57,631 nt of DNA from Candidatus Curtissbacteria bacterium. GTDB lineage: Bacteria > Patescibacteriota > Microgenomatia > Curtissbacterales > GWA2-41-24. The stretch covers positions 210,524 through 268,154 of the forward strand of contig JANLHP010000017.1 in assembly GCA_024654445.1 (NCBI GenBank). The letters run 5' to 3'. Numbering within the stretch: the first letter of the stretch is position 1; each line of letters begins with the position of its first letter. Below are positions 2,187 to 29,734 of the stretch, piece after piece. The notes beneath the pieces are model-generated. The model searched no databases and was not told where the DNA came from. It saw only the letters and a list, made by a program, of their open reading frames with translations. The position numbers were made by a program, and so were the translations under genes.

Positions 2187-5100
2187 ATGAGTATGGAACT
2201 TGATATAATTCAACTAATGCCTGAAGGAACCTCCCGTAGAAAAGAGGACGAGTATCCTCAAGACGAGCTGAAAAAAGACGCCCAAGCTGAAAAATCGAGG
2301 GCTGAGGCTAAAGCACGTGAGAAGGATAAAAGAGAGGCTGAGCGCAAAGGCAGGCAAAAAGAGAATGAGGCGCAGGTAAAGAACAACGAAGACGCTGCTT
2401 CTCAGGCACAAAAAACTCCCAAAAAACAAGAAGAGGAAGAAGAACGAGTAGTTGTCTTCAAAGACATGAGGGTTGCTTCAGAACTTTCAAACGCGGTTCG
2501 CAATAAGCAAGATATTGTTGCTTCAGAAGACGAACTTCAATCCTTAAGAAATATTCTGACGGTTGTTGGCAATGATTTGAAAGATGTCGAAAAGATGTCT
2601 GTCGGTCAAATGTTGGTTGCCGTTCAAGAAGTTGCGCAGGATGAGCGTATTGTTGTGGCTGACGCTGAGGAAGAGGACTGGCTGAATGAGAAGGGACAAC
2701 CCGAAAGAGTCGCAGAGGAGAAAGAAGTGCAGCAGTTGATAGAGACTGCCAGAAGTAAGGACGAAGTGAAGCTCGATGCAGAAAAAGTCGAAAAGTATGT
2801 GAAGGTCTCGACAGAAAAAGTAAGTAAACCCAGGGCTAAGGCCGCAGTACAACAAGCGGAAATTGATCCTGACAGTCGTGCGCTCAAGCTCGAGGGCGAG
2901 GGTGGGACAACGTATGTCGTTGCCACATCCAAGCGACTTTACAACTTAGAACATCGCCAAGTAGAAGCTGTTTTCAGGTCGCAGGGCGTCGATGTCAAAG
3001 TGCCGAGTGCTGAAAGATGGAATAGGGCGAGCGGTTGGGTGCGTCAAAAATGGTTACACAAACACGACATTGTTAACACTACCGAATTGCCGGAGGTGGA
3101 TGACGAGGGACGATTTATATACAAGGACAGAGGACACGGGATGACTTTTGTGGTGGCCAAGGATGGTACCAAAAAAGGACTTATTTATGGTCAACGAGGC
3201 CGAGATATAGACTTTGACGCGCTTAATGGACTGGTAGCCCGAGCCGGGATCGATGTTGATATAGAAAAACCAGAGGGTTGGGAAGATATGTCTTTTGATA
3301 GAAAGAAAGACTTGTTTAGAGAAAAGGAGATCTTCTTGCCTTTACCCGCATCCGGTGGTGCTGGTGGGGGTGTTATTTACTATGACACGCAAGACTTAGG
3401 TGTGGAGATGGTGGCGGGTCCTCCAGGTACTCCACCCAGGCGTCAGTTGAATCACCAGGAGGCAACCACGCTTTTGATGAGAAGGCTAGTTGATCTGGAT
3501 ACTGACGAGCTGACGCAACCCGCTGCGAATGTCGATAGACAAGAAGTTTTTGAAAGGCTGAGAGATGTTTCGGGGGAATATTATGACATTCTCCGTAACA
3601 CCCGAGGTATCCCTTACGAGCGTTATAAAGGTACTGTAATTGAAGTTTCGCTAATTGAGCTTAAAGCTTTAGAGTCTCTTGAGCGAAATATGGGCACTGC
3701 AGCTTTCGCTACCTCCGGTTATGAGGCTGAACGACAAGCACTTTATAGAGAGTTAGCGGACATTGGGTCTACAGAGGAAATTCTTCATAGAATAATTTAT
3801 ATAAAAACAGAGCCTGTTCCTGGGCCTCCAACGCCCGCTCAACATGACGAACTTCAAGCCCTGATTGGAGCAGTCGAATTTCAAGTCGGGACTGCTGAGA
3901 ATTTGGCAGCAGCTAAGGGTGAAGGATTCAGGTTGGTGAACAACGTGATAAAGGGTCTGGAAAAGCAGGAAGTTTTAACGCAAAAGATTCCGAACCAGAG
4001 AGATGTCCTTGATGACACAATTTCTGAGACACGAAGGAAGGATTTGAGGGCTTTGTTAAAGGAGATGGGTGGGCATTTTAAGGAAGTAGAGAGGCAGATC
4101 GGAGTGAAGGCAAAGAATTCTCTTTACATTCCCCTCAATGAAAAAATAGATGAATTGGAAAAGTTGGCAAGTATGGGAAGCACTAATAAGGACGAGATCG
4201 ATGAGCAGCTATATATTTTTGCTTTAAGTTTGCCTTCACCTCGCGGCACAGAAGGACTTTTGGAGTGGCGCGCGGCTATTTCTACAGAAGGGGTTGAAAG
4301 GAACATTTTGCGACAGGCGGAGGTGGGTGTACCTCGCGCTTGGAGTGAATCGGAGAGAAACGCTGAAAATAACTTTAGATACATAGAATCTTCGGACCTT
4401 TCCCAGGAAGAAGTGCGTGCCGCTCTCGGAAACGTTGTCGCAATTTCCGAGGCATTGTCGCGTATCAAAGGAACTGAAAGGATTGACGCTCTACGAATGA
4501 AAGAGAAGATAGACAAGCAAAAACTCGCGGTAGAAGGTAAATATTATCAAAGAAAATTGACGTGGAATGGCGACGGGAACCCGGAGAAGTTTATTCAGAT
4601 TTTTGAAGGTGACCAATGGAATGATGAAACGAGGGGTGTTTTTCAATCGAGGTTTGACAGAGATCATGAAGGGAACGAATACAAAGGGACTGATAACTTC
4701 GGCAACGAAGTAAAATTTAACATGGCTGATTTGTCCACAACGACTTGGTATAGACAACTTTATCGCGACCACGAGGATTTTAATTTGATAGAACCTTTGA
4801 CAGCTTTAAACATCTCGGCACAAATAGTACGGGGTGACGCTACGTGTAACCAAATTGAGGGGATGCTTCGGAGAAGGCTTTTGGATTCGGAGATAACGAG
4901 ATTGAACGAATTAAGGCAGATTTTTAAGAATGAGGTTACACCCGAGGTTTCCTTAATTCCGAATCGTCCTCCCGGTCCCCCTTCCGATGCTGAAATTGAC
5001 AAGTATTGGGCTGACCCGAAAAATGCCGAAGGTATTATCTCTGCTTGGCATAAGAGGACTACTCTTGTGGGTGCGCATGGCAAGGATGATAGTGTTGCCA

Positions 5101-6398
5101 ATGTTGCTCTTGCTCAGCAAAAAAAGGACGTTTGGAAAGGCAGAATACATCAGGATTTAGTAGATCGCTTAAGGAACGAATTCCACATAAGTAACGAGAC
5201 CATAGAAGAATGGGAAGAAGCAGGTTTACTGGATCAGGCTGTAAATGTGGGCTATTGGGAAGGGTACATGGATTCGGCTTTTTCGGAGTTTGGACTTGTG
5301 AGGATTTTTGACAGGAGGAAAGTGTTCTATCGTTTGGATAATGCAAAAATTATGGGAATACCGCCTGCGGGTGGAGGACCTGCTGGGTATGAAAATATGG
5401 ACAACGTTGTCCATTACCAGGTGTATTCTTCGGTCTACGGAGAAGAAAGCAATATTTATAACCAACGAAGGATAGATTTTGGTCCTGAATGGATTCTCGA
5501 TGAACTTAGGGGGAAAACAGGCAAAAACGTAGACAGGGATTTGGATACAAATACGGTATTATGGGAAAAAATGCTTGGCAAAAGAAGGGGTATGCTTCAC
5601 AACAATAGGATGTCAGTAAAGTACACAAGCGATAAATTCCGAGAATCGAAAGATTTTGCGCCAAAACTTTTAACAGCTAAAGCCAAAGAATATGGCTATA
5701 GTACTTTTGAGGATTTTAAGAAACTATTAAAGGATACGATGAATAATTTGGACAATGTAAGAACTTTGGACATCAACGATGATGAATTTGATGAATCCTG
5801 GGCAAGAGGGGCCGCTCTAGCGGAGTTATTCGAGGACGGCTTTCTCTCTTTTGAGGGAATTAATTGGAGCGAAGTCTACAATAATAACGACACAAACGTT
5901 TCCAAATTCAACATGGGTGACTGGACGGGCGATCGTAAATCGACGTGGGATTTTTATGGGACAGAAGGTTTGCAACGCTACCTGAAAACGCCGAACACTA
6001 AGATTTTCTTCGATGTTATGAGTGAAAAGTTCTTCTATTCCAAGAGGGAAAATCGGCTTAAGTCTTGGTACAAAATAGTGCTTCCTGCGCATTTCGAAAT
6101 TGGGGATCACTGGAAGGAATGGTATAGCTCGAACTACAACATGACTAGCGCCGAGAAGGAAGAGATGATCGAAGAGGCCGTTTCTATCAACCGATTGGAA
6201 AAAGAGGCTGAGAGTGCTTTTAAAGCGCAGAATTTAGGAATACTTCCGGTTCGCAGAGCATTTCAATTTTATGAAACATGGAGAATAATAGCTGAAGAGA
6301 CAATCACTAAAAGATCTTTCAATCTTTTCCTCAATTTCTTACTAGAAATGTTTAAAGGAATGTTTGGGCAATCAATGGCTCAGCTAGAGGGAAAATAA
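2187..6398 (+). CDS. 1403-aa hypothetical protein, no recognisable domain; K/E-rich N-terminus, no signal peptide or TM
   Basis: single uninterrupted ORF, AGGAG at 2167-2171, TATAAT at 2149-2154; all antisense ORFs are short. Confidence 0.85.
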   Translation: MSMELDIIQLMPEGTSRRKEDEYPQDELKKDAQAEKSRAEAKAREKDKREAERKGRQKENEAQVKNNEDAASQAQKTPKKQEEEEERVVVFKDMRVASELSNAVRNKQDIVASEDELQSLRNILTVVGNDLKDVEKMSVGQMLVAVQEVAQDERIVVADAEEEDWLNEKGQPERVAEEKEVQQLIETARSKDEVKLDAEKVEKYVKVSTEKVSKPRAKAAVQQAEIDPDSRALKLEGEGGTTYVVATSKRLYNLEHRQVEAVFRSQGVDVKVPSAERWNRASGWVRQKWLHKHDIVNTTELPEVDDEGRFIYKDRGHGMTFVVAKDGTKKGLIYGQRGRDIDFDALNGLVARAGIDVDIEKPEGWEDMSFDRKKDLFREKEIFLPLPASGGAGGGVIYYDTQDLGVEMVAGPPGTPPRRQLNHQEATTLLMRRLVDLDTDELTQPAANVDRQEVFERLRDVSGEYYDILRNTRGIPYERYKGTVIEVSLIELKALESLERNMGTAAFATSGYEAERQALYRELADIGSTEEILHRIIYIKTEPVPGPPTPAQHDELQALIGAVEFQVGTAENLAAAKGEGFRLVNNVIKGLEKQEVLTQKIPNQRDVLDDTISETRRKDLRALLKEMGGHFKEVERQIGVKAKNSLYIPLNEKIDELEKLASMGSTNKDEIDEQLYIFALSLPSPRGTEGLLEWRAAISTEGVERNILRQAEVGVPRAWSESERNAENNFRYIESSDLSQEEVRAALGNVVAISEALSRIKGTERIDALRMKEKIDKQKLAVEGKYYQRKLTWNGDGNPEKFIQIFEGDQWNDETRGVFQSRFDRDHEGNEYKGTDNFGNEVKFNMADLSTTTWYRQLYRDHEDFNLIEPLTALNISAQIVRGDATCNQIEGMLRRRLLDSEITRLNELRQIFKNEVTPEVSLIPNRPPGPPSDAEIDKYWADPKNAEGIISAWHKRTTLVGAHGKDDSVANVALAQQKKDVWKGRIHQDLVDRLRNEFHISNETIEEWEEAGLLDQAVNVGYWEGYMDSAFSEFGLVRIFDRRKVFYRLDNAKIMGIPPAGGGPAGYENMDNVVHYQVYSSVYGEESNIYNQRRIDFGPEWILDELRGKTGKNVDRDLDTNTVLWEKMLGKRRGMLHNNRMSVKYTSDKFRESKDFAPKLLTAKAKEYGYSTFEDFKKLLKDTMNNLDNVRTLDINDDEFDESWARGAALAELFEDGFLSFEGINWSEVYNNNDTNVSKFNMGDWTGDRKSTWDFYGTEGLQRYLKTPNTKIFFDVMSEKFFYSKRENRLKSWYKIVLPAHFEIGDHWKEWYSSNYNMTSAEKEEMIEEAVSINRLEKEAESAFKAQNLGILPVRRAFQFYETWRIIAEETITKRSFNLFLNFLLEMFKGMFGQSMAQLEGK

Positions 6399-6458: not shown

Positions 6459-7940
6459 TTATTCTTCGCGCGGTCCGGGTCTTGTGTGCATTTCCTTTCC
6501 ATACATACCCCTGCTATAAATTCTCTCAAATGCAGCTTCTCTGGTCGCGTGGGCTCGTGCTTCACCGACTGGTTTATACGCTTCTCTAAATGGTCTGGCC
6601 GCAAGACTACCCGCAGCTCCAACAGCTGCTACGCCGCCCCCGATATTCAATCCGCCTTTGACTCCAAACCTATCTTTTACAAGTTGCGCCGCGCTCGGGG
6701 TCATCAGCAAGAATCCCAAGCCGATTAAACTCCCTATATTATTGAGGCCAAGGTTACCAGAAAGAAGGGGAAATTGTCCAATGTCGCCCGGTTTAAACGC
6801 GGGTTGGTCGTTTATGCCTCCTAGGTTACCAACGCCGGAAAGTATGCCCGCGAAAATGAACATTATCGCGACAACTGGAAAAACGGCTATATTGGCGCCT
6901 AGCTGCCTGAACCATTCTCTGGCGCCGTTATTACCAGGCATTGCCTGGACCAATAGTAGAAAAGGTCCGAAAACTGTAAGGATGATAATGGTTACGTAAG
7001 CCATCAAAAGCATGAAGAAAACCCGGAACATGATGAAAAGCATCGCTATTGCTAAAATTATGCCGGCTATTGACCCTCCAAACATGCCGACCACCTTGGA
7101 CAAAAATCCATCTCCAAATAATTGACTAATAAGGTTTTGGATAGCCGTAAAAACTTGATCGAATATTCCCGTAAGTGAGCCCATGACTACGCTAAACACG
7201 TTCGATTTAACTACGTTTTGAGCATTTTCGTTAACAAGGCCCGCTTGTTCAAGAGTAGTTATTACAACGTTTAGAAAAACGAACATTAGGTCTATCATGA
7301 GGCCAACTATCGCGTAACTGAAGGTGACAAGAATTAAGGCGATAACGATTCTCGGTATGGAATCTTGAACTGTAGCGACTGCCTGCGGGGAAATGTGTGT
7401 GCGGAACATGACCATAAAGCCAATGATGACAAAAACTATCACGAAGCCCATGTAGGAAATATTGCGAAAGACGGTCCATAAATTCTGGACTGGTGTTAAG
7501 GCTTGGTAGCCGATTCCCTGGGCGTAGGCCGGCTGAATCGGGTTAAACCTTTCTATTTGTTGCGCGAAGTATTGAGTGCCGGAAGCGGGGGGAGTCGTGA
7601 TTATGCCTGCGACCATTCTGCCTGTTACGTTGAGCGCTCCGGTGGTTTTTGTAACGTCGTTTGTTTCTGAGTGGAGCTGAGAATGACCTGTCAAAAGCGT
7701 GAGCAAGCTGTCGGCAGTTCCCGCGATTTGGTTTAAGTTGAATATTTTATCGTCGTAAACTTGTTTAGTTACAGCCGTTGTGTTGAGTTCTCTGATGCTT
7801 TCAGCTGCGTCGAGAGGTGTTTGAGCGTAGACTGGCGACAGAGTTAAGAGAATAGAGAGTAGAGCTAAAAGCGCAAAAATTACTAAAGCGATTGACAATT
7901 TACGATTAACAATTAACGATAAAACGGCAGTTATTTTCAT
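6459..7940 (-). CDS. polytopic membrane protein, VirB6/TrbL-like
   Basis: signal-like N-terminus (…LTLSPVYAQ), then at least 6 hydrophobic helices and a Gly-rich tail; context within T4SS-like locus. Confidence 0.5.
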   Translation of the reverse strand: MKITAVLSLIVNRKLSIALVIFALLALLSILLTLSPVYAQTPLDAAESIRELNTTAVTKQVYDDKIFNLNQIAGTADSLLTLLTGHSQLHSETNDVTKTTGALNVTGRMVAGIITTPPASGTQYFAQQIERFNPIQPAYAQGIGYQALTPVQNLWTVFRNISYMGFVIVFVIIGFMVMFRTHISPQAVATVQDSIPRIVIALILVTFSYAIVGLMIDLMFVFLNVVITTLEQAGLVNENAQNVVKSNVFSVVMGSLTGIFDQVFTAIQNLISQLFGDGFLSKVVGMFGGSIAGIILAIAMLFIMFRVFFMLLMAYVTIIILTVFGPFLLLVQAMPGNNGAREWFRQLGANIAVFPVVAIMFIFAGILSGVGNLGGINDQPAFKPGDIGQFPLLSGNLGLNNIGSLIGLGFLLMTPSAAQLVKDRFGVKGGLNIGGGVAAVGAAGSLAARPFREAYKPVGEARAHATREAAFERIYSRGMYGKEMHTRPGPREE

Positions 7941-9476: not shown

Positions 9477-10844
9477 TTATTCGGCGCATGTCGCTTCGAG
9501 GCCACACCTTGGACATTCTGTTGTGCCAGATCCATAAATGATTATGGTGCCGCAGCGAGGGCAGGGGAAATCGCTGTCGTCTTCGCCAGCATCATTTGTA
9601 GAAGGGGCAAAGTCGGCGGCGGATTGAGCACTGATTGCTTTTGCGAGTCTCGATATGGCAGGGGTGAGACTGAAGCCTTTTTGTTTCCCCGGGCAACCTC
9701 GTCTGCTTGTTTTTGGCATGCGTCTGCCCTTAATTTGGATTTGTTCTTCGATGTCTTCATCGTTTGTGCGAACGAGGTTTCTTGAGGTCCACAAAATTTT
9801 TGCTTTTTCTTGCTTGAACTTTGTAAAAGCATCCTGTTTTACTTTTTTTACTTTTTGTTTGATCTTCTCAACTTCTTCGTCGAAAGTGTTGAGGGTAGTA
9901 TTCCAGATCATTTTGAGTCGCTCTATTGCTAGGGGGGTATCGGCGAGCGTTCGGATGTAGGCTAAAAAATAGGGAATGCAGGGTTCCAATGCCTCTTGAA
10001 GTAGCTCTGTATTTTTTGCCCGATTGTCGAGGGCGAAGTTTTCCAGAATTTGGGGAAGATTAAATTTAGTTTCGGCAGGTCGGGAGAGCATATAGGCAGC
10101 GTTTAAAGTTTGCTCTTGATTTGGTCTTTGGTAGCCTGGGTCTACTTGGCAAAGCGCATCTAAAAACCCGGCATTGGAGTGGTTGGAGTGGTATTTGTTC
10201 GCGGTGATGGTTTCACCATTCTGTTCTATAACGTAAAAAATGTTGTCATGGTAAAGGATGTCGTCGTCCTCGCCTTTTGGTTCCTCTTCTTCGCCGTGTT
10301 TGCAACGTTCCGATCTTGGAGAGGCGACAACTAAGGTGACATCTCTCCTCTCTGCTAGAAGCCTTATTATTTCTTCGAAACCATCAATTTCTGCTAACTC
10401 TCTTTCGACTTCGTTGCTGCCGTTTTCTTCCAGAAATTGTTGACCCTTTTTATATCTTTCGATAACGGGTAGGGGATAATCGTCGCTCCAGAGTTGACTC
10501 TCGTCGTCCAGGTAGTAATGAAAAGTGCTTCTTTCGACCGCCAGACGCTCGCCTAGAGTCTTTTCTAAGTTGTGATAGGTTCTGTCGTTTGTTTGATCAA
10601 GAAGGCTTTCATACTCGGTCTGGGGAATTTTCCCGCGCAGAGGTTGGAGGTCGAGATAATCCTGGATGTCGTGGCGAGGGTTGTAAGCTAGAATTCCTTC
10701 AAAATCTTCGGGTATATTCCAGCGGACCGACTCGCGGGTAACAAGGTGAGACCTTGTCATACAGTGCCATGCGGTCCTCGTCCTTCGGACTGCGGGCCTA
10801 AAGGTCTCTCCTTGTTGATTTAGGTTGCTTGGAATTCGTTCCAT
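9477..10844 (-). CDS. hypothetical 455-aa protein with acidic patch and C-terminal CPxCG…CPxCG zinc ribbon
   Basis: ORF; AGGAGG 8 nt upstream of ATG 10844; C-terminus FPCPRCGTIIIYGSGTTECPRCG. Confidence 0.75.
   Translation of the reverse strand: MERIPSNLNQQGETFRPAVRRTRTAWHCMTRSHLVTRESVRWNIPEDFEGILAYNPRHDIQDYLDLQPLRGKIPQTEYESLLDQTNDRTYHNLEKTLGERLAVERSTFHYYLDDESQLWSDDYPLPVIERYKKGQQFLEENGSNEVERELAEIDGFEEIIRLLAERRDVTLVVASPRSERCKHGEEEEPKGEDDDILYHDNIFYVIEQNGETITANKYHSNHSNAGFLDALCQVDPGYQRPNQEQTLNAAYMLSRPAETKFNLPQILENFALDNRAKNTELLQEALEPCIPYFLAYIRTLADTPLAIERLKMIWNTTLNTFDEEVEKIKQKVKKVKQDAFTKFKQEKAKILWTSRNLVRTNDEDIEEQIQIKGRRMPKTSRRGCPGKQKGFSLTPAISRLAKAISAQSAADFAPSTNDAGEDDSDFPCPRCGTIIIYGSGTTECPRCGLEATCAE
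10743..10813. repeat. A-type stem (AAGGTGAGACCTT / AAGGTCTCTCCTT) whose loop holds a B module; lies inside the first 34 codons of CDS 9477-10844
   Basis: AAGGTGAGACCTT-GTCATACAGTGCCAT-GCGGTCCTC GTCC ttcg GGAC TGCGGGCCTA-AAGGTCTCTCCTT. Confidence 0.75.
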
Positions 10845-11208
10845 TAAAAAACCTCCTATTTAGTCTCGAGGAGGTTTACAAGTCGCTTTAGACCCGCAAT
10901 GCTAATGAGGATCGCAAGCTTCGCTTTTTGGGCGAGTTATCCTGCTCGGGACTATCCTGCGCTAAAGCTTCGGATAGCAAGCTTTTTTAGCTAAGGATTC
11001 CAATCCATTGCGGTATTAGGACTTATACATTGCTTACTAAAGCTTTGTAATTACCTTTGCGGCACAGTTCCGGAGTCAAACCGGATTCCCCGCTTGCCCG
11101 CCTAAATTGAGTCTTTGACTCTATTTGGCGAGGCGATGGAATTTAGATTGTAAATCTAGATTAGCACTGGGGGTGTGAGGAATCAATAGCCCTCGTTTAC
11201 TAAAGCAG

Positions 11209-11441
11209 AAGGTCTCATCCCTGACAGGGTGAGACCTTAAATACTCGGGAGTAACTTTTAGATTTAAGGAATTTTTTAAAATTCCTTGCGGTCCTCGACT
11301 AAAGTCTGCGGGCCTAAAGGTAGGGCACCTCTTCGAGTCTGAGCAATGAGGCTTACCTCAGAGTCGATGACTTTTGAAGACTCCCTCCGTCGCTCTATTA
11401 GAGCAGAGCTCTGGCGAGCAGGCAAGGATGCCACCTTTAAT
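11209..11441. repeat. mosaic block: A hairpin (11209-11238), AAGGAATTTTTTAAAATTCCTT palindrome (11266-11287), B module (11288-11317), full-length C element (~11315-11441)
   Basis: read directly. Confidence 0.8.
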
Positions 11442-11445
11442 CATT

Positions 11446-11937
11446 TCAGCAGCCGTCCGGAAGGATGTTGAAGTTGGGGTTTTGCTGCTTTAGTTCAAAA
11501 TTTAGAATAAACCTAACCGGAAGAGTGCAGAGGTCTTGCTGTTTGAGTTCAAAATCCAAAAACCACTTTTGCGCGAGAACTCTGGATTCAATTGGATTTT
11601 GGTTGACCATTACGAAGAATATATCCGGAGTAGGTACGTAAACAATCCTGAAATCTTGAGATTCAAATAATACGATGTCGCCGTTTTGATTTGATAATTC
11701 CGAAGCTATAATTTTGTCCCTTATCGGTTTTATATCTTTGTTTTCCTGAACAGTTTTTTCTTTAGGAGGGATTATTACTTCTGGAGATAGAGCTGAAGGA
11801 TTTGGTGATTCTAATGGAGTAGGTGACTTCTTGTCGCGTGCCGAAAAGACGCTTAAGAGTATTAAGCCAATTAGGACAAAAATAACCGCAATCGTGAACA
11901 GTGGTGATCTTTGTCTAATCGCGTTTAAATTTAACAT
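11446..11937 (-). CDS. hypothetical single-pass membrane protein (163 aa)
   Basis: N-terminal TM LFTIAVIFVLIGLILLSVF; start overlaps stop of upstream gene (11931-11937). Confidence 0.65.
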   Translation of the reverse strand: MLNLNAIRQRSPLFTIAVIFVLIGLILLSVFSARDKKSPTPLESPNPSALSPEVIIPPKEKTVQENKDIKPIRDKIIASELSNQNGDIVLFESQDFRIVYVPTPDIFFVMVNQNPIESRVLAQKWFLDFELKQQDLCTLPVRFILNFELKQQNPNFNILPDGC

Positions 11938-22838: not shown

Positions 22839-23206
22839 GGGGATGTATTGTTTCGACAGGATGGCTCTTTAAAAACTGCAAGCCGAATACGATTCTAAGT
22901 GCGTCAAACTTGAATCAAATTTACGTGCAGACAGAGATGTCTCACCGGCTCCAAGAGGCTTTGCTTTTGCATAAGTTTCTTTAAGAGTCTGTCTTTTAAG
23001 TCTTTTCTCGACGTGACTTACTAGGCAACAACTCAGTCGAGAGTAGGACTTAGGTTCTGATCAAACCTCAGTCTGAAACTTAGATCTTTGTTCTAAATTA
23101 GCCTGTTAATCGGCCACAATTTAAAACGAGATTTTATAGATTAAATAAGCTTGTAGATGTTTTTAAAATGTTTTCTTGGACGAGGGCTCAAAACCCTCCA
23201 TCTCCA
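22839..23206 (+). ncRNA. ssrA: tmRNA (SsrA)
   Basis: 5' GGGGATGTATTGTTTCGACAGGATGG…; 3' GGACGAGGGCTCAAAACCCTCCATCTCCA with acceptor pairing GGGGATG/CATCTCC incl. G3:U70; in-frame tag ending …GFAFA-TAA (stop 22972-22974); smpB adjacent. Confidence 0.9.
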
Positions 23207-23219
23207 CACACTCTCTCTG

Positions 23220-24865: not shown

Positions 24866-25567
24866 ATGACTGAATCTGACGCAGGAACAATACACTCACA
24901 AGCAGAACAAGCTCGCGAACGAGGGGATTTTACAGAAGCATTGAAGCTTACTGAGGATGCTTTCGCCGCTTATAATTCCGAAGGAAATGGTGCTAAAGCT
25001 GCTGAAGTCTTAGCGTCGAAGACCTTAACTCTTCGCCACTTATATGAGCAGACTGGGGATATATCTTATTTGGATCAGGCAAAAGAAGAGGCTAGAAGAT
25101 CGGTCCAGGTTGCTACAGCCAGCGGTGTTGGTGGAGCCACGATTTTGCCTCGTTACAATTTAGCAAAAGTCTTAGAAACTTCTGGAGAATTAGAAGAAGC
25201 TACGGGAGTAATGGAAGGGGTTGTTGATGACATGATGAAAAATCCTCCCGAGGAGCTTAAACGTCCATCTGTTAAAGCGGAAATGGAAGTAAGACTTGCA
25301 ACTTTCGAGTATAGAGGTGGCGATAAGAGTGCTTTAGAGCGAGCAGAAAAATCACTTTCAGACCTTGAAGCAGCGGATGAACCAGATGAGTATGCCAGAG
25401 ATGTTTGGGTTTCTGGTGGCCATATGAAAATTGCCGCGATGTTAGTTGAAGATGATCCTGCGAAGGCAAAAGAACACTTAGAAAAAGCAAGAGCAATTAT
25501 TGACGGTAACCCTAAATTAACACTTCGAAGAGCTCAATTCGAAAAACTCTCCCAAAGCTTCAGTTAA
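24866..25567 (+). CDS. hypothetical helical-repeat (TPR-like) protein
   Basis: ORF; ATG 24866 lies 9 nt after TGGTAGAAT (24848-24856). Confidence 0.6.
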   Translation: MTESDAGTIHSQAEQARERGDFTEALKLTEDAFAAYNSEGNGAKAAEVLASKTLTLRHLYEQTGDISYLDQAKEEARRSVQVATASGVGGATILPRYNLAKVLETSGELEEATGVMEGVVDDMMKNPPEELKRPSVKAEMEVRLATFEYRGGDKSALERAEKSLSDLEAADEPDEYARDVWVSGGHMKIAAMLVEDDPAKAKEHLEKARAIIDGNPKLTLRRAQFEKLSQSFS

Positions 25568-25595
25568 CTCCAAATCCTGAATAAATACTAGACAA

Positions 25596-25874
25596 TGGCG
25601 GAGGAGGTGGGATTTACAACTAAAGTTGTAGTATAGTGCACTTCGCTTGCACTATAAACGAACCCTTCCTGCGGAGGCGAGAGGATTCGAACCTCTGAGA
25701 GCCTTACGGCCCTAGTTGTTTTCAAGACAACCGCACTAGTCCACTATGCGACGCCTCCGAGTTGTCCAATTATCGCACTAGTCCACATTAGGCCCGCAGA
25801 TCTGCTATGCAGATCGAGGACCGCATGCCATGGCCCTGAGTAATCGAAGGGGCACTGTATATGCGACCTCTCCC
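25596..25874 (-). other. tRNA-Ser-like outer shell (5' acceptor/D-arm piece with 72-nt D-loop insert; T-arm/acceptor/CCA piece with 44-nt T-loop insert) enclosing tRNA-Ser(UGA)
   Basis: minus-strand reading GGGAGAGGTCGCATA[72 nt]TGTGGACTAGTGCG…[tRNA]…GGAAGGGTTCG[44 nt]AATCCCACCTCCTCCGCCA; compare genuine GGAGGCGTCGCATAGTGGACTAGTGCG and GGGTTCGAATCCCACCTCCTCCGCC. Confidence 0.6.
25672..25758 (-). tRNA. tRNA-Ser(UGA), class II
   Basis: folded by hand: acceptor GGAGGCG/CGCCTCC, anticodon stem GTTGT/ACAAC, loop CTTGAAA, 18-nt variable arm, T-arm AGAGG-TTCGAAT-CCTCT. Confidence 0.9.
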
Positions 25875-25877
25875 AGT

Positions 25878-25950
25878 TGGCGGAGGAGGTGGGATGTGCG
25901 CTTTTTGCGCGAATAGTGCACTCCGTTTACACTATTTACGAACCAATGGG
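25878..25950 (-). other. orphan tRNA-Ser 3'-half-like fragment with 43-nt T-loop insert, immediately downstream of tRNA-Ser(GCU)
   Basis: minus strand …GGTTCG[TAAATAGTGTAAACGGAGTGCACTATTCGCGCAAAAAGCGCAC]ATCCCACCTCCTCCGCCA. Confidence 0.55.
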
Positions 25951-26012
25951 TTCTCATCAGCCACCTCTCTTTTACAAAATTAGGACTAAAAAAGCCCAAT
26001 TTCGCAAAAGGG

Positions 26013-26101
26013 CGGAGGAGGTGGGATTCGAACCCACGCGAGCCGGTAAAGGCTCAAGGGTTTAGCAAACCCTCGCAATGGACCAACTATGCGACTCCTC
26101 C
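26013..26101 (-). tRNA. tRNA-Ser(GCU), class II
   Basis: acceptor GGAGGAG/CTCCTCC, anticodon stem AGGGT/ACCCT, loop TTGCTAA, 19-nt variable arm, T-arm GTGGG-TTCGAAT-CCCAC. Confidence 0.9.
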
Positions 26102-26150
26102 TAAATTGCTGCCTCATTTTACCAGAGACAGGTTTGTACATCAATGAATT

Positions 26151-26663
26151 ATGAGTTATATTTACCGCAATAATCTTAAGATTGGTACTGTGATTCTTAA
26201 TTTCAATCTCACCAGAAGAAACTTACTCGCAATTTTTCTTGGTTTTTTAGTGTTCTTGGTGCTTTTTATAGTGGCAAAAGTGTTAGTTTTATTCACATTT
26301 CATCAAGCGGTGTTGAATTTTCCTTTAGGAGATATTGAGGGTTCTCTTTCCCGTCAGCCATTTGCTGCCATCCTTTGGATATCAAGAACCTTGTCACTAA
26401 TGGCTCCGTTATTAGGAGGAGTTGTAATAGGTTATATGGTTAGAGAAAGAGGATGGTTTTATGGTGGTTTGCTGGGAGTTTTACTGGCAATTATTTTTAT
26501 GGGAATTATCTCTCTAGGTTTTTTTGTGCCCGAATCTTTTAATCCCAACTCATTCGGCGAGATTATACTTGAGGTGATTTTTTACTTGCCTTTATATGTA
26601 GTTTTGACTGCTCTTGGAGGTTGGTTGGGAGAAATACTTAAAAACAGGAAGTCATTGGTTTGA
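26151..26663 (+). CDS. hypothetical polytopic membrane protein
   Basis: ORF with 4-5 hydrophobic helices. Confidence 0.6.
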   Translation: MSYIYRNNLKIGTVILNFNLTRRNLLAIFLGFLVFLVLFIVAKVLVLFTFHQAVLNFPLGDIEGSLSRQPFAAILWISRTLSLMAPLLGGVVIGYMVRERGWFYGGLLGVLLAIIFMGIISLGFFVPESFNPNSFGEIILEVIFYLPLYVVLTALGGWLGEILKNRKSLV

Positions 26664-26692
26664 TCTTTTTGTGATAAACTAAAACTGCCAAA

Positions 26693-27268
26693 ATGCCCAG
26701 ATTCCACAAAACAGACGTAAACGTAGACCATCACTCCGGCAGAGTTATTTCCAAGGAAGAACTTGATGCCAAAAGACAGGCAGCGGTTGAATCCAGAACG
26801 ATAGTTTCCTGGAAATCTCCGGTCCACATTTTTAAACAAAGGTCTAAAAAATACTTCACAAAAGTGGCGCTTTACGCGTTTGTCTTTATTCTGGCGGCGA
26901 TCGCTTTTGGAGAATTTTTCTTGGTCGGTGTAATTATCGCTTTGGTTTTTGTTGTTTATGTATTTGCCAATTCTGCTCCAGAGGTAATTGAACACAAAAT
27001 TACTAATTTGGGGATAATCAGCGGTGGGCGAGTATTTTTATGGGAAGAGCTGGATTCTTTTTGGTTCGATAAAAAGGGAGATGAGAGGCTGCTTTTGGTG
27101 CAAACTCACATGCATTTTCCTTCGCGGTTGATCTTGATTCTGACAACGATTTCGGAAAGAACCCTTTTAGAGCAACTGGAAAGACATCTCCATTATCACG
27201 CTGCACCGGTGCACACACTTTTGGATAAATGGGCCCATAAACTTCAGAGTAAAATAAGCTTAGATTAG
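26693..27268 (+). CDS. hypothetical membrane protein
   Basis: ORF, two central TM helices. Confidence 0.6.
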   Translation: MPRFHKTDVNVDHHSGRVISKEELDAKRQAAVESRTIVSWKSPVHIFKQRSKKYFTKVALYAFVFILAAIAFGEFFLVGVIIALVFVVYVFANSAPEVIEHKITNLGIISGGRVFLWEELDSFWFDKKGDERLLLVQTHMHFPSRLILILTTISERTLLEQLERHLHYHAAPVHTLLDKWAHKLQSKISLD

Positions 27269-27353
27269 CCTTCTGAAGCTTGCGGTACTCGTTCTGAAAC
27301 AGAACTCCGTGCCTAAAACTCCAAAGCAAAATTTCATTGGATTAATTTTTATT

Positions 27354-27503
27354 GTCATTCTGGAGCCCTTCATTCCTGTCATCCTGAGCGGAGCGAAGGA
27401 ATCGTCCTTTGTTCATGATAAACTCCGCGACAGAATCTATCCTTGAGATCCTATTCGAAGAAAAGCTTTGCTTATCGGTCGTTTTACTCCCTCCAGGATG
27501 ACA
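27354..27503. repeat. 150-nt GTCATYCTG-family element with TIR TGTCATTCTGGAG / CTCCAGGATGACA
   Basis: long stretches identical to 24678-24833. Confidence 0.75.
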
Positions 27504-27528
27504 ACCCTTAATGTACACAGCCTTCGGC

Positions 27529-27537
27529 TGGTATAAT
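27529..27537 (+). promoter_or_regulatory. extended -10 promoter TGGTATAAT upstream of tRNA-Arg
   Basis: 40 nt upstream of mature tRNA 5' end. Confidence 0.55.
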
Positions 27538-27576
27538 TACGACGTTAAGTTGCGAGCAAAATTGGATATTATGTTT

Positions 27577-27653
27577 GTCCCTGTAGTTCAATTGGACAGA
27601 ACGCTTCCCTGCGAAGGAAGAGATTGGCCGTTCGAGTCGGCCCAGGGGCACCA
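27577..27653 (+). tRNA. tRNA-Arg(GCG) with encoded CCA
   Basis: acceptor GTCCCTG/CAGGGGC, D-stem GTTC/GAAC, anticodon stem CTTCC/GGAAG, loop CTGCGAA, T-arm GGCCG-TTCGAGT-CGGCC, ACCA end; TGGTATAAT 40 nt upstream. Confidence 0.9.
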
Positions 27654-27659
27654 TTTAAT

Positions 27660-27938
27660 ATGAAACTGACAGACGAAGAGGTACAAAATAAAATAAAAGA
27701 TTTACCGCTGTGGAAATATTCCGACGGTTTTCTTAGCAGAGAGCTGGAGTTTAACAGTTTTAGCGAGGCGCTGGAATTTGTAAATAATGTCGGTAAATTG
27801 GCGGAAAAGATGAATCATCATCCAAATATTTTGATGCATGATTACAAGAAAGTAGATATCACAACTTCTACTCACGACGAAGGTGGTGTTACCGCAAAAG
27901 ACTTTGAGTTAGCAAGGGGAATCGAGGAACTGACTTAA
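27660..27938 (+). CDS. pterin-4a-carbinolamine dehydratase (PCD/DCoH family)
   Basis: …FNSFSEALEFVNNVGKLAEKMNHHPNILMHDYKKVDITTSTHDEGGVT…; start moved to ATG 27660 because track start overlaps tRNA-Arg. Confidence 0.8.
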   Translation: MKLTDEEVQNKIKDLPLWKYSDGFLSRELEFNSFSEALEFVNNVGKLAEKMNHHPNILMHDYKKVDITTSTHDEGGVTAKDFELARGIEELT

Positions 27939-28384
27939 TGATCAAATGTACATTCGAAAATGGGACGCCGGCTTCTTTGAGGCATGTTGTGGTGGATGCG
28001 ATTGTAGTAAACAAAAAGAAAGAAATTTTACTCGTTAAGCGATCAAAAGATAAAGTTACAGAGGGTGGTAAGTGGGCACTGCCTGGGGGATTTATGGATC
28101 GAGACGAAACATTAATTGAAGCTGTTCTAAGAGAAACGAAAGAAGAAACAGGCTGGGAAATTGGGGACGTGGAGCTTTTGAGGGTTGTTGATAATCCGAA
28201 AAGGAGAAATGAGGATAGGCAGAACGTTGCATTTTTTTACACATGTGTTCCTGTTAAGAAATCCGGTAAAGCAGACGACGAATCAAGTGAGCAGAGATGG
28301 TTTAAGTTAGATGGGTTGCCTGAAGAGGAAGAAACGGCCTTCGATCATCTGGAAATTATCGAGTTTTATTTAAGGAATAAGTAG
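27938..28384 (+). CDS. NUDIX hydrolase
   Basis: Nudix box GGKWALPGGFMDRDETLIEAVLRETKEETG. Confidence 0.85.
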   Translation: MIKCTFENGTPASLRHVVVDAIVVNKKKEILLVKRSKDKVTEGGKWALPGGFMDRDETLIEAVLRETKEETGWEIGDVELLRVVDNPKRRNEDRQNVAFFYTCVPVKKSGKADDESSEQRWFKLDGLPEEEETAFDHLEIIEFYLRNK

Positions 28385-28470
28385 GAGGCGTCGCATAGTG
28401 GACTAGTGCGGTCGTTTCGAAAACGACTTTCGGGGCAACTCGAACGCAGGTTCGAATCCTGCCGCCTCCG
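28384..28470 (+). tRNA. tRNA-Ser(CGA), class II
   Basis: acceptor GGAGGCG/CGCCTCC, anticodon stem GTCGT/ACGAC, loop TTCGAAA, 18-nt variable arm, T-arm GCAGG-TTCGAAT-CCTGC; first nt overlaps NUDIX stop. Confidence 0.9.
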
Positions 28471-28490
28471 CCTTCGTCCGACGAAGAATT

Positions 28491-28898
28491 ATGAAAAGAG
28501 TTTTTAGTGCTGGTGGAATAGTAGTAAGGGATTTTGATGGCGAGAAAAAGGTTCTGGTCACTCAACATTCCGGCCATCATGGTTGGGATTTTCCAAAAGG
28601 ACATGTGGAGAAAGGTGAAAAGAGTGTTGATGCTGCAATTCGTGAGGTGGAGGAAGAGACTGGAGTTAAAGCGGAAGTTGTCGAAAAGGTTGGAGACACG
28701 AAGTATTTTTACGACGAGGAGAAGGAGAAAGTTTTTAAGACGGTTGTTTATTTTTTAATGAAATATGTAGAAGAAGGTGAAGCGACTACAGCTTGGGAGG
28801 TTTCTGCAAAAGAGTGGCTACCTGTCGACGAAGTAGAAGATAAATTAACGTTTGGTGATTCTAAAAAACTATTTAGTGAGGTAAAGAGTAGAATTTAA
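28491..28898 (+). CDS. NUDIX hydrolase
   Basis: Nudix box WDFPKGHVEKGEKSVDAAIREVEEETG. Confidence 0.85.
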   Translation: MKRVFSAGGIVVRDFDGEKKVLVTQHSGHHGWDFPKGHVEKGEKSVDAAIREVEEETGVKAEVVEKVGDTKYFYDEEKEKVFKTVVYFLMKYVEEGEATTAWEVSAKEWLPVDEVEDKLTFGDSKKLFSEVKSRI

Positions 28899-28906
28899 TA
28901 AATTCT

Positions 28907-28943
28907 GCGGTCCTCGTCGAGCGTGGCTCGACTGCGGGCCTAA
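28907..28943 (+). repeat. module B stem-loop element (GCGGTCCTC-hairpin-TGCGGGCCTAA), solo copy
   Basis: GCGGTCCTC GTCGAGC gtg GCTCGAC TGCGGGCCTAA. Confidence 0.7.
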
Positions 28944-28961
28944 GAATAAGTGATTAAATTT

Positions 28962-29224
28962 GGAGGAGTCGCATATACAGTGCCCCTTCCATAACTCAGG
29001 GCCATGGCATGCGGTCCTCGACTAAAGTCTGCGGGCCTAATGTGGACTAGTCAGACATGGTGGGATGCGAGAGTGGTTTAATCGGCGGACCTGGAAAGTC
29101 CGTGTAGTCGTAAGATTACCGTGGGTTCGAATCCCACTCCCACCGCAGGAGAACGAGGAGGTTGGTAAATAGTGCAACTGAAAGGCACTATTCGCGCGAA
29201 TGCGCACATCCCTCCTCCTCCGCA
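28962..29224 (+). other. second tRNA-Ser-like outer shell (65-nt D-loop insert, 42-nt T-loop insert) enclosing tRNA-Ser(GGA)
   Basis: GGAGGAGTCGCATA[65 nt]TGTGGACTAGTCAGACAT[tRNA]GGAGAACGAGGAGGTTGG[42 nt]ATCCCTCCTCCTCCGCA; outer acceptor GGAGGAG/CTCCTCC fully complementary. Confidence 0.6.
29059..29145 (+). tRNA. tRNA-Ser(GGA), class II
   Basis: acceptor GGTGGGA/TCCCACC, anticodon stem CGGAC/GTCCG, loop CTGGAAA, long variable arm, T-arm GTGGG-TTCGAAT-CCCAC. Confidence 0.9.
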
Positions 29225-29239
29225 TCGGTTTGACGACAG

Positions 29240-29734
29240 ATGAAAAATATTTCTTTAGACGAATTAAATAGGTTTTTAGGAGAGGCTTCTCTTAAAACTT
29301 ATGCTGGAACCGGTGTGGAGACGAAGGCTACAATAAAGGGTTTTAAAGAATTGGAGTATAGGGATGGCGATTGGTATTACAGGGATAATTACACGGGCTT
29401 TTTTAAATCTTGGGGACAGGAAGTAGTTTGGTATAAGGATCAGCCCGTCTGGATGAGTCTTTACGGAGGAGGTTTGGAGAAAGAATTTTATGGAGACGAA
29501 GCCTTTGCAATTAAAATCTTTAATTTTTTAAAAAAGGCATTATCTTCCGGGGAAAAGTCCAAGAACTTTCAGCCCAGAGGCCCCAAAAATTTAAGTGATG
29601 GGGATTGGGTTTATCATTGTCAATGGACTGGAGATTTATCAGATTTCAAAGGTCATGAAGAAATTTTATATAAAGGCAGGGTGGTATTTACCCACGATTT
29701 TATTGGGGGAGTAGTTATTCCGAGAAAAGTGTAG
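29240..29734 (+). CDS. hypothetical protein (resembles DUF5680-type domain)
   Basis: ORF; family assignment from memory of …YRDGDWYYRDNYTGFF…-type sequences, unverified. Confidence 0.55.
   Translation: MKNISLDELNRFLGEASLKTYAGTGVETKATIKGFKELEYRDGDWYYRDNYTGFFKSWGQEVVWYKDQPVWMSLYGGGLEKEFYGDEAFAIKIFNFLKKALSSGEKSKNFQPRGPKNLSDGDWVYHCQWTGDLSDFKGHEEILYKGRVVFTHDFIGGVVIPRKV

Follow-up and report, generated by a model that had tools for sequence, protein, structure and literature searches.

A tRNA-Ser(GGA) gene nested in the remains of its predecessor: a likely trace of endonuclease-driven tRNA gene replacement in Candidatus Curtissbacteria

Why should a complete tRNA gene lie between the two halves of another one? 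This question is raised by positions 28962–29224 of a 57,631-nt stretch of DNA from a Candidatus Curtissbacteria bacterium (GenBank contig JANLHP010000017.1, positions 210,524 to 268,154; the whole stretch is called the window below, and position 1 is its first letter), where an intact tRNA-Ser(GGA) gene is enclosed by pieces of a second tRNA gene whose D and T loops are enlarged by inserts. The enclosing pieces are referred to here as shell B, and a similar arrangement around a tRNA-Ser(TGA) gene in the same window as shell A. We conclude that shell B is a pseudogene of the tRNA-Ser(GGA) gene that this lineage originally possessed, broken in the anticodon arm. With a probability of roughly 0.6, it is the fossil of a replacement of that gene driven by a homing endonuclease. 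The window is assigned to its host through DnaG, whose best matches are 58–66% identical and, where named, belong to Candidatus Curtissbacteria (Microgenomates, Candidate Phyla Radiation, CPR); a transfer-messenger RNA (tmRNA) at 22839–23209 (Rfam) marks the host as bacterial.

All seven pieces of shell B listed in the original prediction, which was made from the sequence alone, were found where it had placed them. Together with their finer assignment and a free repeat module upstream, they read as follows:

28962–28975, plus strand: 5' remnant of the resident gene, GGAGGAGTCGCATA (positions 1–14, comprising the acceptor strand GGAGGAG, TC and the D-arm start GCATA)
28976–29041, plus strand: D-loop insert ('D element') of 66 nt, or 65 nt (28976–29040) without the T at 29041
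29041–29058, plus strand: segment TGTGGACTAGTCAGACAT between the D-loop insert and the inner tRNA
29042–29058, plus strand: continuation of the resident gene in this segment, with the rest of the D loop GTGGACTAGT, the 5' strand of the anticodon stem CAGAC and the junction AT
29059–29146 (3' end at 29145 or 29146), plus strand: complete tRNA-Ser(GGA) of the GGTGGGA lineage (ARAGORN; Rfam tRNA model)
29148–29165, plus strand: segment GGAGAACGAGGAGGTTGG, which follows the inner tRNA after CA
29147–29165, plus strand: resumption of the resident gene, with the tail of the variable arm, a degraded 5' strand of the T stem (GAGGaGG) and a degraded start of the T loop (TTgG)
29166–29207, plus strand: T-loop insert ('T element') of 42 nt with two hairpins
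29208–29224, plus strand: 3' end of the resident gene, ATCCCTCCTCCTCCGCA (T-loop end AT, T stem CCCTC, acceptor strand CTCCTCC, discriminator G, CA)
28906–28943, plus strand: free B module (TGCGGTCCTCG, a variable hairpin, CTGCGGGCCTAA), just past the stop codon of a NUDIX gene and 18 nt upstream of shell B

The nature of the enclosing gene emerges from comparison with contig L084 of the closest fully sampled relative, whose DnaG is 64% identical to that of the window. There, the locus consists of a NUDIX gene, 5 nt, an intact tRNA-Ser(GGA) gene and, 43 nt further on, dnaG, and none of the nest pieces is present. The L084 gene reads GGAGGAGTCGCATAGTGGACTAGTGCGCAGAC CTGGAAA GTCTG TTTACTCGCAAGGGTATC GAGGG TTCGAAT CCCTC CTCCTCC G (ends GGAGGAGTCGCATAGTGGACTAGTGCGCAGAC..GAGGGTTCGAATCCCTCCTCCTCCGC) and was, among 18 tRNAs tested, the best match to both halves of shell B, with 29/29 identical positions in the 5' half apart from a 3-nt deletion and 27/34 in the 3' half. 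The first 14 nt of the shell (28962–28975) are identical to this gene, which occupies the same position between NUDIX gene and dnaG, and the last 17 (29208–29224) are identical to its 3' end ATCCCTCCTCCTCCGC. Alignment to GTGGACTAGTGCGCAGAC of L084 identified the deleted residues as GCG, covering the 3' strand of the D stem, and alignment to ..GGGTATCGAGGGTTCG provided the assignment of 29147–29165. In summary, relative to the L084 gene, 66 nt were added after GCATA, GCG was deleted, the 5' strand of the T stem was damaged and 42 nt were added in the T loop, while everything from the anticodon loop through the middle of the variable arm was replaced by AT, a complete and different tRNA-Ser(GGA) and CA. 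What is left has neither an anticodon loop nor a 3' strand of the anticodon stem and retains little of the variable arm; its D and T stems are damaged, and its 3' end is untouched. After removal of the inserts, ARAGORN found no tRNA in either shell A or shell B: the spliced shell is not a tRNA.

What, then, do the two shells have in common? As originally predicted, the outer strands GGAGGAG / CTCCTCC are perfectly complementary (7 bp), the inner tRNAs of the two shells differ (GGAGGCG.. for TGA, GGTGGGA.. for GGA), and the shell is not a flank that was duplicated along with one tRNA. The further suggestion that a common shell recruits or targets Ser tRNAs did not hold, because what remains in each shell is the resident gene of its own locus. 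When the inner tRNAs are masked, the mean column identity of the aligned shells is 83%; their resemblance arises because all tRNA-Ser genes of the lineage have common ends and because both shells contain inserts of the same two families. Outside the inserts, the shells align as fragments of two different tRNA-Ser isoacceptors, a result of the kind that the original prediction had named as speaking against it. However, their similarity is not confined to the mobile B module, which it had named as well, for the rest of the D element and the first hairpin of the T-loop insert are shared too. Folding of the precursor with a closed outer acceptor stem, which had been proposed as a check, is not predicted: shell B has a minimum free energy of -103.8 kcal/mol, which rises to -96.3 kcal/mol (+7.5 kcal/mol) when the outer stem is constrained to close, and the pair probabilities of the outer stem are ~0. 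In the predicted fold, AUGCGGUCCUC of the D element is the partner of the shell's 5' strand, and the 3' module forms a closed structure of its own.

The inner gene folds into a cloverleaf with a long Ser-type variable arm and a GGA anticodon (Rfam RF00005, 54.3 bits at a gathering score of 29); as the window has no other GGA isoacceptor, we regard this gene as the working one. There are two distinct lineages of tRNA-Ser(GGA). The resident group comprises the genes of L084, L004 and L005, which are 85–91% identical among themselves, and the GGTGGGA group comprises the inner tRNA of the window and the genes of L003, L085, L090 and L093. The inner tRNA is 82–85% identical to the tRNAs of L085, L090 and L093, all of which are linked to an endonuclease gene, as compared to 74% (L084), 71% (L004) and 66% (L005) for the resident type. 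The tRNA of L093 is 85% identical to the inner tRNA of the window, although DnaG is only 44% identical.

The link to an endonuclease comes from the relatives. Five other contigs from four organisms (two of them being near-identical) have, at this locus, a tRNA-Ser(GGA) of the inner or another lineage next to a gene encoding a helix-turn-helix (HTH) and double LAGLIDADG protein. In L085, a Curtissbacteria metagenome-assembled genome from NCBI, this open reading frame (ORF; 3686–4816, 336 aa) runs into a tRNA of the GGTGGGA type, and 3' of the tRNA stands the old 3' end ATCCCTCCTCCTCCGC as in the window, with a T element and an enlarged T-loop insert. The protein matches Pfam LAGLIDADG_3 (PF14528) with 25.5 bits (cut-off 22.5), and the aspartates of LGDG and DTDG in its motifs GIILGDG and GLMDTDGG are invariant in 27 homologs. 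Searches of the Protein Data Bank (PDB) by sequence and profile retrieved no LAGLIDADG proteins, but only matches to the HTH domain and weak matches to inteins; PHROGs and NCBIfam had no match for the protein. Its AF2 model (mean predicted confidence, pLDDT, 83.7) was matched by Foldseek to I-Tsp061I (E 2e-9, TM 0.77), I-DmoI, I-AniI, I-OnuI and others. The protein thus has a predicted LAGLIDADG fold and the catalytic acidic residues. About 300 homologs exist in Microgenomates, many of them on very short contigs. In all contexts that were retrieved (L090, L091/L092, L093, L094–L096), the endonuclease gene lies beside tRNA-Ser(GGA), and immediately upstream of dnaG except in L090, whose contig has no dnaG after it:

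L090: NUDIX gene, endonuclease gene, tRNA-Ser(GGA)
L091: tRNA-Ser(GGA), endonuclease gene, dnaG
L093: endonuclease gene, 8 nt, tRNA-Ser(GGA), dnaG
L094 (tRNA strand): old tRNA-Ser 5' half, GGAGAGGTCGCATAGTGGCCTAGTGCG, directly followed by the endonuclease gene and next by an intact tRNA-Ser(GGA)

Intermediate arrangements are therefore present in relatives, and the order in L094 corresponds to the one that would be expected for shell B before loss of the endonuclease gene. Moreover, the endonucleases of L085 and L091/L093 are 64–65% identical, while their DnaG proteins share 41–42%; between L091 and L093, the endonuclease is 62% and DnaG 76% identical. By tblastn, the gene is absent from the other DnaG-anchored loci and from most relatives. 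The endonuclease gene is linked to this locus and has moved horizontally, and it behaves as a homing endonuclease gene tied to a single target site would.

These observations suggest the following scenario. The invader would be a free-standing homing cassette, consisting of the HTH and double LAGLIDADG gene and a spare tRNA gene. First, the endonuclease would cut the resident tRNA gene in or near its anticodon arm. Repair from the donor would then copy in the endonuclease gene together with the tRNA, thereby splitting the target. The incoming tRNA would keep up UCC/UCU decoding, and its sequence is presumably not cut by the enzyme; the cell would survive because the cassette supplies a tRNA of the same specificity. 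Homing endonuclease genes usually decay and get lost. Accordingly fated, the endonuclease gene would finally disappear from the locus, leaving the old 5' half, the new tRNA and the old 3' half, which is the order of shell B. An endonuclease-driven origin of this locus is likely, but not proven: we infer that the endonuclease cleaved the resident gene and that such a gene once stood at this very locus; any role of the loop inserts is equally conjectural.

Shell B is not the only nest. Shell A follows the same plan around tRNA-Ser(TGA), and nests or isolated halves of other tRNA genes were found in several relatives:

25595–25873, minus strand (window): shell A, with the plan of shell B, around tRNA-Ser(TGA) at 25671–25758
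25877–25956, minus strand (window): A', a 3' half only, with a T element (81.5 bits with the T-element model)
L003, 10622–11091: tRNA-Asn nest, consisting of a 5' half with an 18-nt D-loop hairpin, a GIY-YIG ORF (84 aa, 10671–10925, 53.7 bits), an intact tRNA-Asn (10916–10989) and a 3' half with a T-loop insert of ~80 nt
L004, 2598–2890: tRNA-Arg(GCG) nest, in which the old gene runs to the anticodon and is followed by 30 nt, a new tRNA-Arg(GCG) and 10 nt, after which the old gene resumes
L089, within 6945–7316 / 5751–6061: tRNA-Arg nest with two 5' fragments and one 3' fragment
L089, within 6945–7316 / 5751–6061: 5' half of a tRNA-Ser(TGA) with a 23-nt D-loop insert (CCCTTCGACTTCGCTCAGGGTAA), beside an 81-aa GIY-YIG gene
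L005: 5' half of a tRNA-Ser(GGA) bearing a D element
L003 and L085: 3' halves of tRNA-Ser bearing a T element
L001: homologous 3' modules after two Ser tRNAs

The 5' remnant of shell A carries a D element and derives from a GGAGAGG-type tRNA-Ser(TGA), a gene that L084, L085 and L001 possess in intact form; the 3' module of the shell carries a T element. In the L004 nest, the old tRNA-Arg(GCG) has a T-loop insert of ~100 nt and an intact D loop, and the entry point is clearly the anticodon loop. With comparable nests of Ser-TGA, Arg and Asn genes, the pattern appears to be general. Insertions of another kind were seen in L083 (tRNA-Asp, 10979–11256) and L093 (tRNA-Asn, 7127–7427); these tRNAs, both missed by ARAGORN, carry ~200–230 nt in the anticodon loop, which are probably group I introns. 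At 53752–53830 (minus strand) of the window, AGGTTCG followed by GGCAACTTTGCGAAGCAAAGTACCCCTGGTAAATGGT and ATCCTACCCGCGGAGG resembles what is left of the 3' part of an Asp-like tRNA whose T loop has received a hairpin insert, and ARAGORN found no intact tRNA beside it.

The module A' lies downstream of tRNA-Ser(GCT) (26011–26101) and of a spacer hairpin (25968–26008), and its ortholog in L085 is located at 1433–1513. Between the window and L085, the non-coding DNA that extends from tRNA-Ser(GCT) to A' shows 85% identity, as compared to 69–72% DNA identity for dnaG, the gene of a conserved 191-aa protein and the NUDIX gene. This degree of conservation points to either selection on an RNA or recent exchange through co-conversion. 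The spacer hairpin itself, long and AU-rich, directly follows tRNA-Ser(GCT) and is conserved in both genomes (window 25968–26008, minus strand; L085 1382–1420); in the window copy, pairing is kept via three G.U pairs, on the tRNA-sense strand only. A hammerhead ribozyme was considered at CUGAUGAG in A' and rejected, as the motif has no Rfam match and reads UUGAUAAG in L085. The whole block of tRNA-Ser(GCT), A' and shell A (window 25595–26101) is inverted relative to L084 (6934–7122) and L085 (1289–1700); in the window, a TPR gene lies between the block and a ComF-like gene, and a DUF5518 membrane gene between the block and the gene of the 191-aa protein.

The inserts belong to two families, which, as far as the sequences go, have been found inside tRNA genes only in dead halves; the D element and its B module also occur in other hairpin loops and in intergenic spacers. 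Intact tRNAs have no D- or T-loop inserts of this kind. The expectation that the inserts are shared structured modules with covarying stems was confirmed, as was the similarity of the D-loop insert to that at 25788–25859 (~91% identical). Two arms of 65 nt (25814–25878 and 28957–29021) are 91% complementary, 24 nt at the 3' junction are 100% identical, and a 26-nt core, ACTCAGGGCCATGGCATGCGGTCCTC, occurs exactly twice in the window as compared to 0 copies expected. Each D element pairs GCCC with GGGC in a 4-bp hairpin, whose 13-nt loop, CUUCNANUACUCA, is conserved, and continues with the hairpin of the B module (29010–29040 in shell B). There are four full copies, in shells A and B of the window and at 6245 and 10540 of L005, the last of which (10540–10612) sits in the loop of a hairpin that is not a tRNA. 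RNAalifold predicts 18 pairs, five with compensatory changes. A ribozyme of the hepatitis delta virus type or another small ribozyme in the D element was rejected for want of an Rfam match and of a fitting pseudoknot.

Comparison of the window with L005 shows covariation in the stems of the B module, a long irregular hairpin, and what looks like a direct repeat in it is really a stem, GGUCC/GGGCC in the window becoming GCUUC/GAAGC in a relative. Its pattern occurs 17 times in the window at up to one mismatch (3.6 expected), and intact modules number five in the window and two in L005. Outside the shells, free copies are located at 10770–10801, 11287–11317 and 28906–28943. The B module and D element resemble repeats of the repetitive extragenic palindrome (REP) or miniature inverted-repeat transposable element (MITE) type, as several dispersed copies of a conserved palindromic unit exist; no target-site duplication is visible at the D-loop junctions. 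A short form of the D element at 10759–10801 sits in the loop of a 12-bp hairpin, and a further B-module copy is found at 10888–10916 (minus strand); the copies near 10759–11317 frame a 600-nt stretch free of ORFs (10844–11446), which has no Rfam match. Another repeat of the window, at 27300–27520, is an inverted repeat TGTCATCCTGAGCGGAG / CTCCCTCCAGGATGACA and belongs to a 'gtcatcctgagc' type that is also present in L005 at ~10470–10690.

In the T element, hairpin 1 (AAUAGUGC-loop-GCACUAUU) is conserved, whereas hairpin 2 (GCGC-GAAU-GCGC) is variable and covaries. A covariance model, R1, detected seven distinct copies in 890 kb (an eighth hit, L086, is a duplicate of an L085 contig), all of them in 3' remnants of tRNA-Ser in the window, L003 and L085. 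Both hairpins are supported by the pair counts: 86.7% of the cells are paired, six pairs have changed on both sides, and 0/500 shuffles reach the score; as the sequences are few and related, this covariation is an indication rather than proof. The idea that hairpin 1 mimics an anticodon loop was dropped, its loop being independent of the isoacceptor. At the gathering score as well as at E<=10, Rfam matched nothing in the shells beyond the tRNAs. As to a role of the inserts, three ideas may be put forward: by analogy to the rRNA genes of CPR bacteria (PMC11270868), they may be ORF-less relics of further homing insertions; they may destroy a T-arm recognition motif of the type used by the T4 endonuclease SegB (PMC2330249); or they may reflect selection against a tRNA-like elbow in leader and trailer.

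The wider setting of the locus is as follows. The window contains intact tRNA-Ser genes for TGA, GCT, CGA and GGA, which cover all Ser codons (ARAGORN), and in the same region tRNA-Arg(GCG), two NUDIX genes, and then dnaG and rpoD. From the DnaG scan of genome contigs, only L001, a Shapirobacteria genome with the gene order of the window, was a useful relative; the scan of metagenomes yielded three close relatives among the matches listed, and in L083 and L086–L088 the upstream region is missing or rearranged. No record identical to the NUDIX protein was found. Between shell B and dnaG, the window carries a DUF5680 gene (29240–29734), which is absent in L084 and which had no match in PHROGs or NCBIfam; L003 has an unrelated 257-aa ORF at this place. 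That the DUF5680 gene is part of the cassette was rejected, as it is absent beside the remnants of L003 and L085.

Several observations weigh against replacement by a homing cassette. Neither an endonuclease gene nor a recognisable relic of one was detected in the window by tblastn, and no more than AT lies between the 5' half and the inner tRNA, so that a very clean loss must be assumed. The insertion itself is unclean, with a loss of ~25–30 nt from the resident gene. L085 and L090 have no 5' half, and L090 lacks both halves; the arrangements are thus heterogeneous. Activity and target of the endonuclease are putative. The presence of a D-loop insert in every 5' half and of a T-loop insert in every 3' half lies outside what homing accounts for. 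Finally, 3' modules are conserved above the level of coding genes (85% vs 69–72%), and together with the barely mutated acceptor strands this fits recent transfer or selection better than an old neutral fossil.

Among the alternatives, turnover of tRNA genes without homing fares best, but we consider it unlikely. The Ser cluster would have undergone duplication, recombination of an unequal or illegitimate kind, or an uptake of foreign tRNA DNA with conserved tRNA segments as anchors, leaving beside the new genes stubs of old ones that later collected small repeats; endonuclease genes nearby would be bystanders. This would explain why the window has no endonuclease gene and why breakpoints are untidy, with part of the resident gene deleted. 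Further, the 3' modules of L001 resemble tandem duplications that include 10 nt of the trailer, the inversion of the block from tRNA-Ser(GCT) to shell A relative to L084 and L085 points to a rearrangement-prone region, and type-1 and type-2 tRNA-Ser(TGA) are reciprocally intact and fragmentary in the window and L085. However, the endonuclease gene abuts the old half or the new tRNA in L085, L094 and L003, at least five independent nests have the new tRNA lodged within the old gene's anticodon arm, and the tRNA lineage tracks the endonuclease gene and not the host.

It is distinctly less probable that the shell halves and inserts constitute a functional scaffold, that is, a selected leader and trailer of the inner tRNA, which could guide or delay processing by RNase P and RNase Z, make the precursor more stable or be a source of separate small RNAs. 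The covarying hairpins, the high conservation of the stretch between tRNA-Ser(GCT) and A', the changes in the spacer hairpin that are G.U-compatible on the tRNA-sense strand only, and the perfect 7-bp outer complementarity are in agreement with such a role, as is the pairing of the B-module strand AUGCGGUCCUC with the 5' end of the shell, for which matching differences are present in L005. However, folding does not predict the outer stem, the D and T stems inherited from the tRNA have decayed, L084 does without any of the pieces and other relatives have only the 5' or only the 3' half. Signals found in a scan for promoters and terminators at the shell B unit were no better than in shuffled sequence, so that none frames the unit. 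A tRNA mimic of the tmRNA or Y-RNA kind was likewise rejected, as the outer stem is not predicted to form and the pieces are absent in relatives.

Very improbable is a scar of an integrase-borne island (attL/attR) or an assembly chimera between strains, even though tRNA fragments next to intact tRNAs are classically remnants of att sites (PMC9897764) and the window is probably metagenome-assembled. The two halves are complementary parts of one gene and not direct repeats, and no integrase or recombinase is encoded at 22–32 kb; the inner tRNA is not chimeric, and the same architecture is found in independent assemblies from NCBI, ENA, JGI and Logan. Least credible of all is a real outer tRNA gene from which three intervening sequences are removed as in some archaea: the three insertions do occupy the three cloverleaf loops (D loop, anticodon region, T loop) and the old tRNA-Arg of L004 is complete once its inserts are removed, but the joined 'exons' of shell B, which have no anticodon loop, only one half of an anticodon stem and no variable arm, are rejected by ARAGORN, which contradicts this explanation for this locus, the inserts of 66 and 42 nt are shorter than the ~200 nt or more of a group I or group II intron and match neither family (25500–29300, gathering score or E<=10), all four Ser isoacceptors are already intact, and the host is a bacterium (tmRNA), a domain from which, to our knowledge, no tRNA splicing endonuclease has been described.

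Taken together, the replacement of a resident tRNA gene by an endonuclease cassette appears to account best for the nest. Normally, homing endonucleases persist in essential genes under cover of a self-splicing intron or an intein. The present element seems to have another solution, in that it brings along a spare copy of the gene it breaks. If true, this would represent a third route for selfish DNA into essential genes, and in CPR bacteria with their very reduced genomes it would drive the replacement of tRNA genes and their horizontal transfer. The HTH-LAGLIDADG family is a candidate source of endonucleases that target tRNA genes. The loop inserts are small covarying RNA or DNA structures that match no known family. 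For annotation, it is relevant that tRNA finders detect the inner gene only and that the halves may be mistaken for att sites or odd tRNAs. One may speculate further that nesting is an active and general selfish strategy in CPR bacteria, by which a cassette destroys an essential tRNA gene and repays the cell with its own copy, the inserts being functional or new tiny invaders of hairpin loops and the 3' modules selected RNAs. We regard this extension as possible but doubtful. The inserts could in this case destroy the elbow or T-loop motif that is read by tRNA enzymes or by the endonuclease, or they could prevent misfolding of the dead halves with the live tRNA.

In the full-text literature that was searched, we found no description of a tRNA nested in the remains of a resident gene of the same specificity, or of insertions in CPR tRNA genes. 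Several known systems invite comparison. Archaeal multi-intron, split and permuted tRNA genes (PMC3218864) also have intervening sequences in the D, anticodon and T loops, but these are cut at bulge-helix-bulge motifs and leave complete exons, whereas the 'exons' of shell B are incomplete and the host is bacterial. Integrative elements likewise leave partial tRNA genes beside intact ones, which are easily mis-annotated (PMC9897764). Integrase scars, however, are direct repeats of the 3' part at the ends of an island, whereas 5' and 3' halves flank a complete tRNA here, and both carry loop inserts. In the 'fractured genes' described by Dassa et al. 2009 (PMC2677866), a free-standing endonuclease gene also lies between the halves of a split essential gene. 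There, function is restored at the protein level by split inteins, whereas in the present case the halves are dead and a replacement gene is supplied.

Closer in terms of organism are the LAGLIDADG insertions in rRNA genes of CPR bacteria (PMC11270868), which involve the same group of organisms and the same superfamily of endonucleases. They are located at the tops of stem-loops, exist in ORF-bearing and ORF-less versions at the same sites, and their homing is evidenced by discordant phylogenies; tRNA is not mentioned once in the text of that study. In contrast, the tRNA case shows no sign that the insert is removed from the RNA, and a spare gene would rescue function instead. Among free-standing homing endonucleases that promote the inheritance of genes next to them ('intronless homing'), SegB from the tRNA gene cluster of phage T4 (PMC2330249) is similar in that its gene lies beside tRNA genes, is inherited together with the flanking tRNA genes and is patchily distributed among relatives; the site that SegB recognises includes the conserved T-arm motif of a tRNA gene. 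However, the present host is the chromosome of a cellular CPR bacterium and not a phage, and the putative enzyme is of the HTH and double LAGLIDADG type, or GIY-YIG in the Asn nest. Above all, the incoming tRNA lies inside the anticodon arm of a resident gene of the same specificity, so that the resident gene is destroyed and replaced.

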